Shown: positions 8,772 through 19,267 of the stretch, one piece after another
Layout of the letters: each line of letters opens with the position of its first letter
Position numbering within the stretch: the first letter of the stretch is position 1
Assembly: GCA_030614005.1 (NCBI GenBank)
Contig: JAUWKS010000019.1
Span: forward strand, 1 to 32,000
Length of the DNA stretch: 32,000 nucleotides
Direction of reading: 5' to 3'
From: Candidatus Heimdallarchaeota archaeon
GTDB taxonomy: Archaea; Asgardarchaeota; Heimdallarchaeia; JABLTI01
Notes under the pieces: generated by a model
Told to the model about the DNA's origin: nothing
Seen by the model: the letters and a program-made list of their open reading frames with translations, nothing else
Database searches by the model: none
Made by a program: the position numbers and the translations under genes

Positions 8772-9836
8772 TCAAATTACCACAACATCGGCAACCATTT
8801 GCCATTGCCTTGGTGCGCTCATCCTTACTTTACGAACTTCAAGCACAGAATCGATCTTTCTACCATTTTTTTCTATTTCCCGAGAAATGTCTTCTACAAT
8901 AGTTTTCTCCGGATTTTCTCCACCAACAAATTCGAAGAAGTGAATAATTCCGCCTTCTTTTTTCAAGGTTTTACAAGCAACATCTACAAAATCAACAGCA
9001 TACCCAGGAAGATTCATAATTATCCTGTCTGCAACATTCTCAAGATTATGCTCATCAACAACTTTTCGACAATCTCCACAATGAGGAGTTATTGTTCCAA
9101 GTAATTTGTTTAACGTGATATTTTCTTTAAGTAATGCTATAGCACCAGGGTTAATGTCAATCGCATGAATTTGAGCATCAACTTTTTTGGCAATCGGTAT
9201 TGCAAAAGGGCCAATGCCACAAAACAAATCAACAATTGTTTCATTATCTTTGGATCTATTAGCTATCCTTGAATGTTCCTCGCTTAATCTAGGACTGAAA
9301 TAAGCTTGAGTTATATCTACTACTAACCTTACACCATGTTCTTTGTAAATGGTTTTTGTTTTCTTTTCTCCAGCAAGAAATTCTACTGGACGAATTCTAT
9401 TTATCCCATCTACTTTTCCAGCTTTTGCATAAACTGTTTTAATACTAGAATGAGCAGTGAGTAGAGCATTACCAATAATTTCTTTTTTATCTGCTAATTC
9501 CTCTGGGACTTCAATTACAACAATGTCCCCAATTGTATCAAAACTTCGTGGAGTTAATTCCATTTCCTTTTCGGAAAAAAATTCTTGCAAAACATCAAGG
9601 TGTGATTTTGGAGTAAATTTAGTTGGAAGCAAAGTATCACTAAAAGATTGTTCTATTGTTGAATCAATTTTAGAGAGAGAAGTTAATTCTTTTTTTGTCA
9701 ATTCTCTATTTACAGGGAGAATTAAATGCGTTTCTTCTGCTTTAATTCTAAATAACCCATTAAGTAAATCTCTTCTGTCTAGCTCTTCTCTAATTAATTC
9801 ACCATATTTCTTTAGAGTAATTAGACAGTGTGGCAT
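8772..9836 (-). CDS. trm5: tRNA (guanine37-N1)-methyltransferase, Trm5 family
   Basis: SFDTIGDI, YFSPRL, DLFCGIGPFAI, AIDINP, RIIMNLP. The NLP motif favours the Trm5b/c type (from recall). Confidence 0.9.
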   Translation of the reverse strand: MPHCLITLKKYGELIREELDRRDLLNGLFRIKAEETHLILPVNRELTKKELTSLSKIDSTIEQSFSDTLLPTKFTPKSHLDVLQEFFSEKEMELTPRSFDTIGDIVVIEVPEELADKKEIIGNALLTAHSSIKTVYAKAGKVDGINRIRPVEFLAGEKKTKTIYKEHGVRLVVDITQAYFSPRLSEEHSRIANRSKDNETIVDLFCGIGPFAIPIAKKVDAQIHAIDINPGAIALLKENITLNKLLGTITPHCGDCRKVVDEHNLENVADRIIMNLPGYAVDFVDVACKTLKKEGGIIHFFEFVGGENPEKTIVEDISREIEKNGRKIDSVLEVRKVRMSAPRQWQMVADVVVI

Positions 9837-9955
9837 ACTTATCAACTTACAATATTTATCAATAAATAATATTCAACAATAAAAGAATACTTCGACGTCG
9901 ATTAAACATCATTAAATTTCTTTAGGTTATAACGATTTAATAAAAAAAAGAGAAT

Positions 9956-11340: not shown

Positions 11341-11675
11341 GGTGAGGATTAAACGGTTTCCGGGTGCTCTCGTTAGCATCTGAGGAAGGTCCTTTCTTCC
11401 AGGCTAGCGATACAGTGAAAGCTGTCAAGCGGAATCTTGGCTCTGGGAATAGAAACGATACGTGAATACGGTCTAACAATGATACACGGCGTCTTCGGAA
11501 GCTTTGTTGAGGTTTACGTATACAAAGCGTTGAAACGACCCATCATCGCGGAAGCAAGCTCAAATTGGCTTCAATGACTTGCCAGGAGAAGCGGGTTGAG
11601 CGCGTAGATTGATACCGTGAGAGGAGCTCATCGCAAGGTGATCCTCGAAACAGAAAGAGGACTATTATCCTCTCC
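11341..11675 (+). ncRNA. rnpB: RNase P RNA, archaeal type A
   Basis: P1 GAGGAT/ATCCTC; P2 CGGTTTC/GATACCG; P4 GAGGAAGGTCCTTT with ACAGAAAGAGGACT; P5 CTTCC/GGAAG; AGAAAC and TGAAAC loops flanking a long P12 (ATACGTGAA/TTTACGTAT); P15 GCTCAA/TTGAGC; P16 TGGC/GCCA; P19 with a GCAA loop. Confidence 0.95.
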
Positions 11676-12249: not shown

Positions 12250-12693
12250 TCAGCCAATGCTATATCCCAATTTTTGTTTTTCTTCAATAAACCGAATTAT
12301 ATTAATTGTAATATCCTTATGTGATGAAATCTCCAACGCTTTTTCTGGTTTAGCCCAACAATATTCTACATGTTCATGAGATAATCTGACTGACGATTCA
12401 TTTGTTTTGCACCAATATGTTACCCAAATTCGTTCTTGAAATCCATCAATTTCATAATTATGAAAAACGCCTAGCATTTTTATTATTTCAAATTCTTCTA
12501 TCCCTGTCTCTTCTCGAATCTCTCGGGTAAGAGCATCAAAGGGGTTTTCAAATTGCTGTATCCCTCCACCAACAACATCCCAAATGTTTCCTGGTGAATT
12601 ATCAGGACTTCTCTTAATGAGTAAAATTTCACCTTCAGAATTTTCTATTATAGCACCAATAGCGAAATTGAACCTGCCTTCCTCATTATCCAT
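12250..12693 (-). CDS. NUDIX hydrolase
   Basis: Nudix box GGIQQFENPFDALTREIREETGI and LSHEHVEYCW. ATG 12693 overlaps the upstream stop (ATGGATAA). Confidence 0.92.
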   Translation of the reverse strand: MDNEEGRFNFAIGAIIENSEGEILLIKRSPDNSPGNIWDVVGGGIQQFENPFDALTREIREETGIEEFEIIKMLGVFHNYEIDGFQERIWVTYWCKTNESSVRLSHEHVEYCWAKPEKALEISSHKDITINIIRFIEEKQKLGYSIG

Positions 12694-13186
12694 GAATAAT
12701 ATCCCCTTTTGTATTTTCAAAAATGACTTTTTCAATTTGTTGTTTTTCAGCCATTTGTATTCTCAAATATTTCATTAAAGCAGGATGATCTGTTACTTTA
12801 ATTGCATCTTCTGGAGTTAACCATTGATAATCTGTATGTTCATTTGAAAGAATAACCTTAGATGTTCGGGTTTTACACCAGTAAGAAATTCCGATTAGTT
12901 CATTTTCTTTTTTCTTGATATTGTTTCTAAATATATGAAATACAGTTAACGGTTTTACTATTTCTATATCCACAATTCCTGTTTCTTCTTTTATTTCTCT
13001 TCTTAAACCCTCTTCCGGTGATTCAGATTGTTTTAAGCGCCCACCAACATCTTCCCAACAATTAGGAAATTCGGCTTCTGGACGTCTTTTAATTAATAAT
13101 ATCTCACCTACATCATTTTCAATTATCGCAGTAACCGCTACCATAAAATTGGCATTTTCCACATACATCACCAATAAACTAGACAA
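12686..13186 (-). CDS. NUDIX hydrolase
   Basis: Nudix box GRLKQSESPEEGLRREIKEETGI and LSNEHTDYQW. Start may be a few codons downstream. Confidence 0.92.
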   Translation of the reverse strand: MSSLLVMYVENANFMVAVTAIIENDVGEILLIKRRPEAEFPNCWEDVGGRLKQSESPEEGLRREIKEETGIVDIEIVKPLTVFHIFRNNIKKKENELIGISYWCKTRTSKVILSNEHTDYQWLTPEDAIKVTDHPALMKYLRIQMAEKQQIEKVIFENTKGDIIHG

Positions 13187-14604: not shown

Positions 14605-15183
14605 ATGTATAAATACGTTGGAAAATTTTGGAAAAACAGAAATAGCCCTGAATTTAAGGCTTTACAACGCAGTAGATTAATTGTTTGGCGTAAAGAAAGT
14701 ACAACTGTAAGAGTTGAAAAGCCAACAAGAATTGATCGTGCTAGAGCTTTAGGTTATAAAGCAAAGAAAGGCTATGTTGTTATTAGAATCAGGATTAGAA
14801 GAACACGTTTAAGAAAAAGCAGACCAAGTCAGGGTAGAACTGGCAAGGGTCAAACTGTTAGAAAAGTCCAACCAGGCAAAAGCTTCAGATGGATTTCAGA
14901 AGAACGTGTTGCTCGCAAGTACCCTAACCTTGAAGTACTCAACTCTTATCCAGTTGGCGAAGATGGAAGATTCAAGTGGTTTGAAGTCATATTAGTTGAC
15001 CCACATAGTCCAGTAATCATCAAAGATCCAAAGATAAATTGGATTTGTCGCCCCGCTAATAAAGGCAGAGTATTCAGAGGCTTAACCAGTGCAGGCAAAA
15101 AATCAAGAGGTCTGTCTAAGAAAGGTACAGGAACTGAGAAAATTAGACCATCTCTACGAGCACATAAGAGAGACGGTAAATAA
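14605..15183 (+). CDS. rpl15e: 50S ribosomal protein eL15
   Basis: EKPTRIDRARALGYKAKKG, YPNLEVLNSY, EDG.FKWFEVILVDP, RVFRGLTSAG. Confidence 0.98.
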   Translation: MYKYVGKFWKNRNSPEFKALQRSRLIVWRKESTTVRVEKPTRIDRARALGYKAKKGYVVIRIRIRRTRLRKSRPSQGRTGKGQTVRKVQPGKSFRWISEERVARKYPNLEVLNSYPVGEDGRFKWFEVILVDPHSPVIIKDPKINWICRPANKGRVFRGLTSAGKKSRGLSKKGTGTEKIRPSLRAHKRDGK

Positions 15184-15261: not shown

Positions 15262-15738
15262 ATGTCTTTGTCATCAGAAAACACTATCAAAATAAACGAT
15301 ATTAGAATTTCTTGTAGTGCACATGCTACTGAAGACCTTGAAAAAGTCAAAGAGGCTATGCTATTCTTTCTTCCGGAAAAATTACGAGTAATGGAAGAAA
15401 TAACTGATCTTGATATTATTGGTCATGCCGGGCATCCTATCCATCTCTTAGAATTAGTTGTTAAACATCGAAGAAAAATACTCGAAACGGTAAAATATCT
15501 TGCTGAGCTTTTAGATGATGCAGATAAAGAATTTCTTTTTGATGAACTAGATAGTCATTTAGGGAAAGATAATTGTTTGTATATTCGAGCAAACAAACAA
15601 GATGCGCTAAATGAAACGTTTACTTTAGATGAGAAAGATAATACAATTAAACTAGTTATTAAATTGATAATATATCAACGCAAGCCACAGTTAATTGAGG
15701 AAACACTTGAAAAATATGGGTTGATAAAGAAGGAATGA
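15262..15738 (+). CDS. RNA-binding-domain protein (DUF54/UPF0201-like)
   Basis: HATEDLEKVKEA, GHAGHPI, LYIRANKQDA, plus its usual position between rpl15e and rpp30. Confidence 0.88.
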   Translation: MSLSSENTIKINDIRISCSAHATEDLEKVKEAMLFFLPEKLRVMEEITDLDIIGHAGHPIHLLELVVKHRRKILETVKYLAELLDDADKEFLFDELDSHLGKDNCLYIRANKQDALNETFTLDEKDNTIKLVIKLIIYQRKPQLIEETLEKYGLIKKE

Positions 15739-15745
15739 TCCATCG

Positions 15746-16870
15746 ATGATCCCTTTCGTTGAACCAACAGTATATGCCGATGATGAGAAATCAATGCTTG
15801 AATTTGATGCTATTGCTTCACGCCTAGGTATAACTGGTTATGCAGTTTACAATTTTTCAGTTAAAGAAGGAAAAAACACTATAGTGCAAGAGACAGTGGA
15901 ACATTTCTCAAGAAAAGATATTAAAATTACAAATCTAAATAAGGTACGTAATTTCCTTTCAAAGGAAAGAAAGCAATGTGAACTGTTGAGTATAACCACT
16001 ACAGATGCAAAAATCGCTCAGTGGGTAGTTAAGGATAATAGAGTTGATATTCTATCAATTCCTGTTTCAAAAATAAAAGAGATTATAACTGAACAATTAG
16101 CCAATGTTGCTGCTGCAAATCAAACTTTTCTTGAAATAGACTTAAGCTCAATAATACATTCTGCAAATAGGAAATCGATTATTCTACACAAATTAACTAG
16201 GGTTATGAGATTAATACTAAAACAAAGAGCACCTTTTGTTTTTACTACTAAAGCAAAAAATCCATTCGATTTAAGAGATATGCGCTCAATTATTGCACTA
16301 GGCAATCTTATTGGAGTTCCGGAACTGAGAACCAAAGATTGTATGAAAGCATTTTATGAAAGAATTCACCTGAACAAGAAAAAACTCAAAGATGAATTCA
16401 TTACAACAGGTATTTGGAAGAAAAGCAAGAATCAACTACCTAAAGAAACAAAGAGCAAAAAGAAAAAAACATTAGAAGTTGAGATTGATTCGGATGATTT
16501 GTCAGTAGAATTTATTAAACAGTCAGAAGAAAAAAGAAGGTTGGACAGACAGAGATATATTCTCTTTGAAATTCTTTCAGAGAAGAAATCGAAGTTTGAA
16601 AAGAAACATATTGAAGATTTAATATGGAATGAAATTGGCAATCATTTTGGATCTGTAGGTAGTTCTAGAATAGGAATGTTTTTCTCATACTTTAATTTAG
16701 AGAAGCAATTTGGAATTATTCGTTGTACCAATCATTCATTACAATCAATCAGAGCAGTCTTTTCATTCATTACTGATATTGAAGATGAAAAGGTTCTATT
16801 TCATATTATGAAGGTCTCAGGTACTATTCGTTCTTTAGTTAAAATAGCAAAGAAGAAAGAAAAGAAATAG
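15746..16870 (+). CDS. Fused RNase P protein subunits Rpp30 (aa ~1-225) and Pop5 (aa ~264-374)
   Basis: Rpp30-like RVDILS, FLEIDLSSII, PFVFTTKA.NPFDLR, FITTGIW. Pop5-like RQRYILFEI, FGSVGSS, GIIRC, KVSGTIR. One continuous frame. Confidence 0.9.
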   Translation: MIPFVEPTVYADDEKSMLEFDAIASRLGITGYAVYNFSVKEGKNTIVQETVEHFSRKDIKITNLNKVRNFLSKERKQCELLSITTTDAKIAQWVVKDNRVDILSIPVSKIKEIITEQLANVAAANQTFLEIDLSSIIHSANRKSIILHKLTRVMRLILKQRAPFVFTTKAKNPFDLRDMRSIIALGNLIGVPELRTKDCMKAFYERIHLNKKKLKDEFITTGIWKKSKNQLPKETKSKKKKTLEVEIDSDDLSVEFIKQSEEKRRLDRQRYILFEILSEKKSKFEKKHIEDLIWNEIGNHFGSVGSSRIGMFFSYFNLEKQFGIIRCTNHSLQSIRAVFSFITDIEDEKVLFHIMKVSGTIRSLVKIAKKKEKK

Positions 16871-16907
16871 CAACTTTGTAATTTAGAGAGTTAGAGTGTT
16901 CAAGTCA

Positions 16908-17522
16908 CTATTCTTGTAGTTTTTGATTGTTAAACATGGTAATTTTCCAAATGTCATTTTCAGAACCCCTTTCAAGGATGTTTATCATGCAACTACCAAA
17001 CCATTCATCTAATTTTGTTGGTAGGAGATTTAAGATTCTAATTAAAATATGATATAATGTACCGCCATGACCAACAAGCAAGATTGTAGAATCTTCAGTG
17101 TTATTTTCTACAATTTCGAGAAATGCTTCTTGTATCCGCACAGTCATATCATAATTACTTTCTCCACCAGTAATTTTCTCTTCTACATTTACTAATGTTG
17201 AATCAAGATATTCTCTCTCTTCTTTTGTTATATCTGCTGATAACCTTCCTGTGAAATCTCCTGCATCACCTTCTCTCAATCTTTTATCGAGAATAATCTT
17301 TTCAATCCTAAGTTCATCACAAATTAGAGAAGCAGTTTCTGCAGCTCTTTTCAAATCAGAGGAATATACAGCATCAAATTTTAGATTATTTTCTGCTAAC
17401 TTTTTCCCCAAAGATTGAGCTTGTTCTCTCCCAAATGTTGTTAATGGTGTTGCTCTATGACCAGCTATTACTTTGTTTATGTTATCTTTACTTTGACCAT
17501 GCCTAACTAAATAGAATCTCAT
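16908..17522 (-). CDS. Histidine phosphatase family protein
   Basis: LVRHGQS, SSDLKRAAETA, LREGDAGDFTG, GGES, LVGHGG. Confidence 0.93.
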   Translation of the reverse strand: MRFYLVRHGQSKDNINKVIAGHRATPLTTFGREQAQSLGKKLAENNLKFDAVYSSDLKRAAETASLICDELRIEKIILDKRLREGDAGDFTGRLSADITKEEREYLDSTLVNVEEKITGGESNYDMTVRIQEAFLEIVENNTEDSTILLVGHGGTLYHILIRILNLLPTKLDEWFGSCMINILERGSENDIWKITMFNNQKLQE

Positions 17523-17770: not shown

Positions 17771-19267
17771 TTAATCTAGAGAAGGATCACCAACGGTAAT
17801 ATTTTTATCAAGAACAAAAGGTTCCGATGATTTCTCAGATTCAGAGGCATCATCAAAAATGTCATCGAAACCATCAAGTGCTCGAGAGGATTCTTCTTTT
17901 TCTTTTGCTAATTCAGCTATTTTCATATTGATTGAATCATCCAAGTGTCTTGCTGGTGTAAAGAAGTAAATTGCTATGAAAATAATTGCACCTAAAGCTC
18001 CAGAAACAGCAAATAAAATTCCTATAGGAACATATTCTCCAATTAAACCCGCTAAGAACATTCCAATCGGAGATATGGCCATTGACATAAACATTGTTGT
18101 TGAACTAACTCTGCCCATTTTTTCTTTCGGAACAACAAGTTGTAAAGAGGTACTAAAGCTTACATTTGCCATCGGATTGGGTACCATCCCAATAAAAAGA
18201 ATCAAACCAATAAGCCAGAATCTAATTGGCAATGTAGTTGGTACAAATACAAGTGCAATTTCCGCAGCAAATAATATCAACACACACACCAAAACAGCTC
18301 TAATCTTATTTTTGAATCCCTTGAAGAATGTCATAAAAAGTCCACCAAGAATTACACCAACTTGCATAAACCCTATAACAAGTGCATAACTCGCTTCTGT
18401 ACCTCCGTGAACTTTGCTAACAAATAACGGTAATAGAGTACTAATAGGAGAAAAGAAGAAATTGATTAAGGTAGCACCAATCATTATCGCTAATAATCCT
18501 TTAATGCCTTTAATTACACTGAAACCTTCTTTGAACTGAGCAGAGAATTTTGGTCGATTGCTTTTTTCTTTTTGAACTGGTGAAGGTATTTTAATCAATA
18601 GCAATGGAATGACTGCAATTGCGAAAGTAATAGCATCAATCCACATAGTTAAACTGACATCAAATATGTTCAATAACAGCGCTCCCAAAGCGGGACCTAT
18701 AACTTGAATTACACCGCTTACAAGATAAGCTACGCCATTCATTCTACCAAGATGTTTTTGTGGAACCATTGTTGGTATTAATGCACTGACAACTGGAGAA
18801 TGAAATGCCTGCATCGCTCCTCGCAAACCTAACGTGATAAAAACACTTACAATTAACAATGTTTTATTCGAAATTTGAGTTGGATCTGCAGGATTAGGAG
18901 TATAAAATATCATAAAAATAATTGTAAGCATAACAGTGAATAGAGCTTGAATGGTATCAACAGTAAATAACAAAGGTTTTCTTTTAGCTCTATCTGCAAT
19001 TACTCCAGAAAATGGTGCTACTAAAAGAAAGGGACCTAAACTGGCTAGTGCAGCTAAACCTAGCATTAGTTCACTTTGGGTTGTTTCAGACATCCACCAG
19101 ATAAGAACAAATGATACTACTGATGAACCTAATATCGATATCTGTTGTCCTGAAAAGAAGAAGATAAAATCTCGAAATCGCTTTTTCTCTTCTTGCGCAA
19201 TTTCTGCCTGACTCGCGCCATTTAATTCTAATCCCTTATCAAACTCTTCAGGATTGCCATTAACCAT
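17771..19267 (-). CDS. MFS transporter (MefA/DHA3-like efflux)
   Basis: FFFSGQQISILGS, motif A GVIADRAKRK, LIPTMVP..HLGRMNG, LQLVVP.EKMGRV, about 12 hydrophobic segments, acidic tail. Confidence 0.92.
   Translation of the reverse strand: MVNGNPEEFDKGLELNGASQAEIAQEEKKRFRDFIFFFSGQQISILGSSVVSFVLIWWMSETTQSELMLGLAALASLGPFLLVAPFSGVIADRAKRKPLLFTVDTIQALFTVMLTIIFMIFYTPNPADPTQISNKTLLIVSVFITLGLRGAMQAFHSPVVSALIPTMVPQKHLGRMNGVAYLVSGVIQVIGPALGALLLNIFDVSLTMWIDAITFAIAVIPLLLIKIPSPVQKEKSNRPKFSAQFKEGFSVIKGIKGLLAIMIGATLINFFFSPISTLLPLFVSKVHGGTEASYALVIGFMQVGVILGGLFMTFFKGFKNKIRAVLVCVLILFAAEIALVFVPTTLPIRFWLIGLILFIGMVPNPMANVSFSTSLQLVVPKEKMGRVSSTTMFMSMAISPIGMFLAGLIGEYVPIGILFAVSGALGAIIFIAIYFFTPARHLDDSINMKIAELAKEKEESSRALDGFDDIFDDASESEKSSEPFVLDKNITVGDPSLD

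Follow-up and report, generated by a model that had tools for sequence, protein, structure and literature searches.

The ribonuclease P (RNase P) proteins Pop5 and Rpp30 of archaea form a tight 1:1 complex; in crystals as well as in solution it exists as a 2:2 heterotetramer (PMC3227427). This heterotetramer is the centre of the dimeric holoenzyme of M. jannaschii, where it sits on the catalytic domains of two RNAs (PMC6565675). A survey of archaeal RNase P proteins in 127 genomes reported the adjacency of the genes only, and a structural paper of August 2026 on Rpp30 and Pop5 deals with separate proteins throughout. The DNA explored here, referred to as the window, is a stretch of 32,000 nucleotides (nt) from Candidatus Heimdallarchaeota archaeon (GCA_030614005.1, contig JAUWKS010000019.1, positions 1 to 32,000). 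At positions 15746-16870 it possesses a natural single-chain Rpp30-Pop5, with both complete domains in one open frame. An earlier note, made by a model from the letters of the window, had pointed to this fusion and left its novelty unconfirmed. A full-text search returned no paper describing a natural Rpp30-Pop5 fusion. The architecture is visible in databases yet, as far as can be told, it has apparently not been discussed.

The fused rpp30-pop5 gene (15746..16870, + strand) is a single open reading frame (ORF) that begins with ATG and encodes 374 amino acids (aa) plus a stop. Both Pfam domains were identified in it. RNase_P_p30 (PF01876) covers aa 49-201 with 101.9 bits (E 4.3e-29; Pfam cut-off 35), and RNase_P_Rpp14 (PF01900, Pop5) covers aa 270-364 with 81.3 bits (E 6.5e-23; Pfam cut-off 23). 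NCBIfam assigns RNase P component 3 (NF046111) to aa 9-223 (E 5.7e-24) and RNase P component 2 to aa 267-366, both below the equivalog cut-off. The Pop5 half also matches PDB sequences, namely 3wz0_C (E 1.4e-19), 2czv_C, and 2av5_A, at E values of about 1e-19. The two independent domain E-values, together with conservation in relatives, rule a chance match far out. Pfam, NCBIfam, and this conservation all bear out the earlier description of one 374-aa frame that holds Rpp30 and a full Pop5 domain.

The Rpp30 module occupies 15746..16435 (+; aa 1-230) and has a TIM-barrel-like fold and a conserved C-terminal tail, ...F-I-x-x-G-I-W-K. The earlier note had ended this part at FITTGIWKK, which is indeed found at aa 218-226, and G222 in this tail is nearly invariant within the fused family. 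A profile of the family aligned to M. jannaschii Rpp30 (6k0a_C) up to residue 231 of the 232 in that chain, at profile position 230. Residues 13-14 of P. furiosus Pop5 (2av5_A) fall opposite L266-D267 of the window protein (P0001, used as the query). From these alignments to solved proteins, approximately aa 231-253 (16436..16504, +) are assigned as a new connector, Lys-rich and then acidic in the window species. The following aa 254-265 (16505..16540, +) are assigned as the counterpart of the N-terminal tail of free Pop5; in this segment the fused family has a semi-conserved E-[LI]-P..L...K-K-L-E pattern. The Pop5 core (16541..16867, +; aa 266-374) begins at the invariant RQRY motif. The linker had been given a length of 38 aa; the string quoted for it has 37 residues, aa 227-263. 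That no ATG lies between the domains was confirmed, since there is no methionine from M201 to M312.

Predicted models place both halves among the solved proteins. The AlphaFold2 model of the window protein has a predicted local distance difference test score (pLDDT) of 81.9 and a predicted template modelling score (pTM) of 0.81, and aa 228-259 fall below a pLDDT of 50. P0044, the most divergent member at 32% identity to the window protein, was modelled with a pLDDT of 83.2 and a pTM of 0.79, and its equivalent linker segment is also low. In two-domain chains, pTM values of 0.81 and 0.79 imply a confident predicted placement of both halves relative to each other. By Foldseek, the Rpp30 half of the model matches 6k0a_C with a template modelling score (TM) of 0.82 and a root-mean-square deviation (rmsd) of 2.7 over 228 columns, with further matches to 2czv_A/B and 1v77; this half is predicted to have the TIM-barrel-like (PHP-type) fold of solved Rpp30. 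The Pop5 half reaches a TM of 0.83 to 3wz0_C and 0.81 to 2av5_A (rmsd 1.5-1.7), with a predicted alpha/beta fold like that of the RNA recognition motif (RRM).

The fused frame is not limited to the window. The window's GTDB family (f1), which consists of two genera of Heimdallarchaeia, has 12 species genomes, and a six-frame search found the frame full-length and stop-free in 10 of them, at 36-86% identity to the query. In the two genomes without a match (G002 and G006), the contigs end 3 and 278 nt past the RNase P RNA gene. As this gene is linked upstream of the fusion, the locus is unassembled in both. In a collection of 5.8 billion proteins, about 36 distinct 90%-identity clusters consist of proteins of 361-381 aa that unite PF01876 with PF01900. 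The fused public proteins are 36-98% identical and come from NCBI, JGI, ENA, and Logan. The window genome (3.6 Mb, 126 contigs, 90% complete) holds a single copy of either domain. Five more genomes of the family have no PF01900 match, and no PF01876 match above cut-off, other than the fused frame. The fused gene is the only source of either subunit in the six family genomes tested. It is very likely that the fusion is fixed across the lineage and is a genuine joining of the adjacent genes rpp30 (component 3) and pop5 (component 2). The core claim of the earlier note, a natural and conserved single-chain Rpp30-Pop5, stands on the protein clusters and on the sole copy in six genomes, and the close relatives that might have had two genes have the fusion instead.

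The segment between the domains was compared in 37 full-length members. Its mean column identity is 0.35, versus 0.60 in the domains. The distance from G222 to R268 ranges from 38 to 62 aa, with all length differences in whole codons. Across four species pairs, the ratio of nonsynonymous to synonymous substitution rates (dN/dS) of the linker is 0.18, 0.18, 0.30, and 0.18, and that of the flanking domains is 0.12-0.29. Judged from these substitutions, the inter-domain segment is evolving as translated, selected coding sequence. Its net charge runs from -9 to +7, and Lys richness is thus not a trait of the family. The proposal that a Lys-rich linker adds RNA contacts is therefore left without support. 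In the M. jannaschii holoenzyme, the C-terminal tail of Rpp30 docks as a beta-strand on Rpp29, and the N-terminal tail of Pop5 contributes to a basic cleft in which CR-IV of the RNA is held (PMC6565675). The ends of the linker align with these tails, and so both ends appear to derive from functional tails.

The origin of the fusion can be approached through its relatives. A tree of Rpp30 and Pop5 sequences unites all fused forms in a single clade (support 100/100), and this clade indicates that they descend from one event at the base of the family. G089 (family f7) is not claimed as the sister of the fused clade, as its placement is unresolved and its branch is long. In the other Asgard loci that were read, rpp30 and pop5 are two abutting genes. 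Seven of the first 20 non-fused loci have both genes in the same frame, with one TAG, TGA, or TAA between them, and Pop5 then begins 3-9 residues ahead of the RxRY motif (the survey of frames and stops covered L015, L018, L019, L021, L028, L029, L032-L039, and L041). An excess of same-frame loci could have suggested programmed read-through. This was rejected, because 7 of 20 is close to the one-third expected by chance; four of the seven loci stem from one genus. The distance from the C-terminal Gly of Rpp30 to RxRY is approximately 10 residues in family f2, 19 in f3, and 34 in G089, and in the fused family it is 38-62 (median 41). Two fused genomes, G004 and G005, keep a Met at the ancestral Pop5 start (...QQMSSVKDKSERQRY, versus *AMSVTAKGKERQRY in the unfused G089). 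The same-frame neighbours with a single stop and this relic Met make stop loss the simplest origin. The absence of an ATG had been taken as an argument against stop-codon loss, and the comparative loci point to stop loss instead. A start codon is no longer needed after fusion, so a missing ATG in the window species is expected. The ancestor of the family would have lost the stop codon between the same-frame neighbours rpp30 and pop5. The linker would then consist of the old C-terminal tail of Rpp30, a new connector of approximately 23-40 aa, and the old N-terminal tail of Pop5.

The single chain is expected to fold with its halves packed together like free Rpp30 and Pop5. By analogy with the heterotetramer, two chains could pair through their Pop5 halves and give a homodimer equivalent to (Pop5)2(Rpp30)2. 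Like that heterotetramer, the homodimer would be seated on the RNA's catalytic domain and would organise the holoenzyme. The fusion would fix the 1:1 stoichiometry and the co-folding genetically, and Rpp29, Rpp21, and the RNA would stay separate gene products. A two-copy homodimer prediction of the fused protein gave a median of 0.38 against a mark of 0.42 and was used as evidence neither way.

Other explanations of the locus were considered. There is a vanishingly small chance that the fusion is a sequencing or assembly error that deleted a stop, or a decaying pseudogene in one metagenome-assembled genome (MAG). The window genome is a MAG of 126 contigs, and A-rich runs, where indel errors arise easily, occur in the linker. 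The same architecture, however, is found in 10 species genomes and in about 36 protein clusters of unrelated projects, and purifying selection acts on the linker as well as on both domains. Contigs of other studies (Logan) span 16340-16870 and 15749-16870 with substitutions only; these independent assemblies, rather than raw reads, are the support over the linker, and no stop or indel was found in the contigs that cross it. The commonest Logan variant has 22 substitutions, 10 of them within 32 linker codons, and its frame stays open. The artefact was rejected because relatives, public clusters, independent contigs, and dN/dS all contradict it. It is also quite improbable that the frame is fused and the cells nevertheless make two proteins, either by internal initiation (TTG at 16541 or 16499) or by proteolysis of the connector. 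A TTG stands one codon ahead of D/E-RQRY in 4 of the 10 family loci, with purine-rich sequence before it, and an ATG stands 8 codons ahead of the motif in 2 more loci, from sister genomes. TTG makes up only 14% of the Leu codons within these genes, and the connector is predicted to be disordered and hence accessible to proteases. Against this, the 48 codons that precede the motif in G010, which is 83% identical, include neither ATG nor GTG nor TTG; in G007, G009, and G011 the last 10 codons are free of start-capable codons; and the four TTG cases represent only two independent lineages. The connector is under purifying selection as translated sequence, and 38-62 aa are kept throughout the family, which an untranslated spacer would not need. 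The start-capable codons before RQRY are not conserved, so internal initiation is not a property of the family. Independent initiation of Pop5, for example at a TTG, had been raised as a possible objection in the earlier note; the TTG at 16499 (L252) is present, as is a second at 16541 (L266), and no internal start codon is conserved among the 10 family loci.

Several points weigh against a fusion that is fixed across the lineage and made as one chain. In the window species, internal starts at the TTG codons of 16499 and 16541 are conceivable. That cells contain the full-length polypeptide is deduced from sequence evolution, and its 2:2-type oligomeric state from analogy. The organism occurs in cold-seep and marine-sediment samples, and among the sequencing runs listed for it none is of RNA. 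The gene tree gives no resolved sister to the fused clade. In addition, on a metagenome contig of 1,082 nt (JGI sample 3300042731, P0047), the Pop5 half is called as its own gene of 143 aa; an ORF of 81 aa precedes it by 39 nt and shares its frame. This Pop5 half carries the family-typical ...KRLERQRYLLFEV and 33 linker-like residues, and the contig may stem from a split relative or a pseudogene, or may show a sequencing error. A further explanation, compatible with a conserved fusion, is that the linker is a new functional element that contacts the RNase P RNA or Rpp29. This is possible but doubtful. The low dN/dS (0.18-0.30), the semi-conserved E-[LI]-P..L motif with a basic K/R cluster right before RQRY, the Lys-rich first half in many members, and the derivation of both ends from functional tails (PMC6565675) are in its favour. 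However, with its wide range of charge and its low identity, the linker keeps no general basic RNA-binding character. Its central part has no confident predicted structure in the two AlphaFold2 models, and the constraint could reflect only the needs of tether length and solubility. Rather unlikely, too, is a family-specific rebuilding of RNase P near the eukaryotic stem, with a working connector, an obligately symmetric dimer, and the RNA drawn near. The selected connector of approximately 23-40 aa may then reach Rpp29 or the RNA, and the covalent 1:1 link may enforce symmetry in a dimeric holoenzyme, opposite to the asymmetry at which eukaryotes arrived. A genuine and inherited gene fusion remains the preferred explanation.

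The reach of this fusion was explored through several searches. A phmmer search over 1.84 billion cluster representatives gave 625 matches, and the best 150 of these were examined for length. Among the best 150 of 625, the proteins longer than 300 aa fall in 11 clusters, all of the fused clade and no others. The rest of the 150 are free Rpp30 (approximately 200-290 aa) or free Pop5 (approximately 100-140 aa). Across 399 Asgard genomes of 33 families, no stop-free full-length match was found outside the fused family. Open-frame values of 358-431 aa in other families had prompted a reading of the DNA of 15 loci with long open frames. All 15 were rejected as fusions, because the DNA of each shows at least one in-frame stop between the genes. 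A profile search for long Pop5 proteins found only two members, both of the same clade, and with 8000 candidates scored it is weak evidence. Feature and shape searches of the ESM Atlas, which consists of clusters of at least 50 members, gave single-domain clusters only. Within the extent of these searches, the fusion appears to be confined to one clade of Heimdallarchaeia.

The fused proteins are mostly labelled Candidatus Heimdallarchaeota or Asgard group, and the genome records with the locus are labelled likewise. Their NCBI product names cite only one of the two halves, and the automatic JGI names list both domains. For P0009, P0031, P0032, and L050, the taxon labels conflict with the sequence kinship of the fused protein. 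The odd labels are 'candidate division Zixibacteria bacterium', 'Candidatus Thorarchaeota archaeon', and 'Candidatus Bathyarchaeia archaeon', and these records are probably mis-binned or mislabelled MAGs.

The window also possesses the RNase P RNA gene, 4.1 kb upstream of the fusion at 11342..11674 (+). It was identified with Rfam RF00373 (archaeal) at 125.3 bits against a gathering score of 84, and it had been cited beforehand at 11341-11675, nearly the same boundaries. In all seven family loci with enough flank (the window and six others), this gene is 1.7-4.3 kb upstream of the fusion on the same strand (linkage loci: the window; L042, L045, L046, L049, L050, L053; G010:C24, G005:C22, G009:C44, G011:C194, G008:C15). 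In complete or large-contig genomes of the sister families f2 and f3, the RNA gene is 0.28-1.9 Mb away from the protein gene or on another contig. One genome of family f4 (G072:C302) has them 6.8 kb apart. Since genes on the opposite strand lie between them, the RNA and the fusion are a neighbourhood rather than one transcript. Against the archaeal model, the RNAs of the fused family score 107-141 bits and those of f2, f6, and f7 score 137-191 (191 in G089). The lower score in the fused family hints at a co-evolution of the RNA with the fused protein. The RNA of this family is more divergent either for that reason or merely through AT-richness.

Archaeal RNase P consists of the RNA with Pop5, Rpp30, Rpp29, Rpp21, and L7Ae. 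Rpp29 is encoded by a separate gene in the window genome (contig C89, region 16905-17171), and 9 of the remaining 11 family genomes have Rpp21 (PF04032) as a gene of its own. As Rpp29 and Rpp21 remain separate genes, the rest of the enzyme seems to follow the canonical plan. In the window's own MAG (90% complete), no Rpp21 above the Pfam cut-off was found. A weak Rpr2 (Rpp21) match at C57:15779-15979 (L052 1366-2316) was rejected as spurious, as it is below cut-off and lies in a 316-aa ORF with an N-terminus like a helix-turn-helix. The true Rpp21 gene of this genome is probably unassembled. Family f4, of the same class, may carry a reduced RNase P. None of its 12 genomes (G014, G018, G022, G072-G080) has an Rpp21 (PF04032) match. 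The query P0001 matched 7 of the 12, with at most one match in each, and the two rows listed are Rpp30. The RNase P RNAs of f4 are approximately 265-294 nt, versus 315-365 nt in sister families.

The fusion stands in a conserved gene string. This string starts with the gene for ribosomal protein L15e (14605..15183, +; Pfam E 5.4e-76), followed by a gene for a PF01877 RNA-binding protein (15262..15738, +; Pfam E 1.5e-24), whose stop is 7 nt before the ATG of the fusion. The order L15e, PF01877, fusion is identical in L053, the most divergent fused locus. In other archaea, it is in this gene string that rpp30 and pop5 adjoin (PMC4919917). Synteny between the window and L053 is broader, and in the window it runs from 8772-9845 (-) to 22695. 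It takes in the Trm5/TYW2 tRNA methyltransferase, HypC, CYTH, the RNase P RNA, NUDIX, L15e, PF01877, the fusion, ScpB, and the beta and alpha subunits of succinyl-CoA ligase. Compared with L053, the window has extra genes between the fusion and ScpB, a histidine phosphatase (16908-17522, -) and a major facilitator superfamily (MFS) transporter (17771-19267, -). It also has two NUDIX genes, versus one in L053. These are tandem NUDIX hydrolase ORFs at 12250-12735 and 12686-13186 (-), between the RNase P RNA and L15e, and as listed they overlap by 50 nt. The downstream NUDIX ORF probably starts later than the listed TTG.

Neighbouring genes commonly fuse in evolution when they encode interacting subunits. 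The fusion described here is real, lineage-wide, and useful, and it is unsurprising in kind. It is a natural 'Rosetta-stone' confirmation of the partnership of Pop5 and Rpp30. The fused protein is a ready single-chain subcomplex and could be a handy reagent with which to reconstitute or solve an Asgard RNase P without co-expression. It is also a natural experiment on whether a fixed 1:1 stoichiometry and a symmetric 2:2 unit matter to the enzyme. For systematics, it provides a clean shared derived character of one Heimdallarchaeial family. The naming of these proteins by NCBI after one half only is an annotation problem that can now be flagged. The understanding of the mechanism of RNase P is unchanged, and the fusion is a modest variation on a well-known enzyme.

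The two-gene Asgard loci (families f2, f3, f7, f14, f19, f20, f29, and f32) are among the nearest described systems. These are orthologous and have the same gene order, with tiny spacers or none. Unlike the fusion, they have a stop and a Pop5 start codon, and their inter-domain distance is shorter. The free Rpp30 of family f2 is 281-290 aa long (loci L015-L022, L025, L027, L028, and L035). The match of the query to it begins near residue 100, which indicates an N-terminal extension of approximately 50 aa that is absent from the fused family. The two-gene systems of other archaea share the neighbourhood L15e, PF01877, rpp30, and pop5 (PMC4919917). The archaeal heterotetramer (P. horikoshii 2CZV, T. 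kodakarensis 3WZ0, and M. jannaschii 6K0A/6K0B) has the same two domains, in sequence and in fold. By analogy, the fused protein would share its role, to bind the RNase P RNA at the catalytic domain (PMC6565675). However, the heterotetramer is made from two genes and two polypeptides, and here there is one chain with Rpp30 N-terminal and Pop5 C-terminal. In the fused family, 38-62 extra or re-used residues join the halves, and the heterotetramer would become a homodimer.

A lineage-specific remodelling of the same pair is likewise seen in the Rpp30/Pop5 heterodimer of the reduced type T RNase P of Pyrobaculum (PMC13462272). There the proteins are shrunk and separate (PMC13462272), whereas here they are full-size and joined. 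The eukaryotic Pop5-Rpp14/Pop8-(Rpp30/Rpp1)2 module (yeast 6AGB, human 6AHR) has homologous folds, as matches to 6agb_E, 6agb_I/J, and 6ahr_E/I/J were found with Foldseek. It occupies the same site on the RNA (PMC6565675). In eukaryotes, Pop5 was duplicated to Pop5 and Rpp14/Pop8, with an asymmetric module and a monomeric enzyme as the outcome. The fused family, in contrast, has a single Pop5 tied to Rpp30, with one PF01900 in the window genome, and this arrangement favours a symmetric 2:2 unit.

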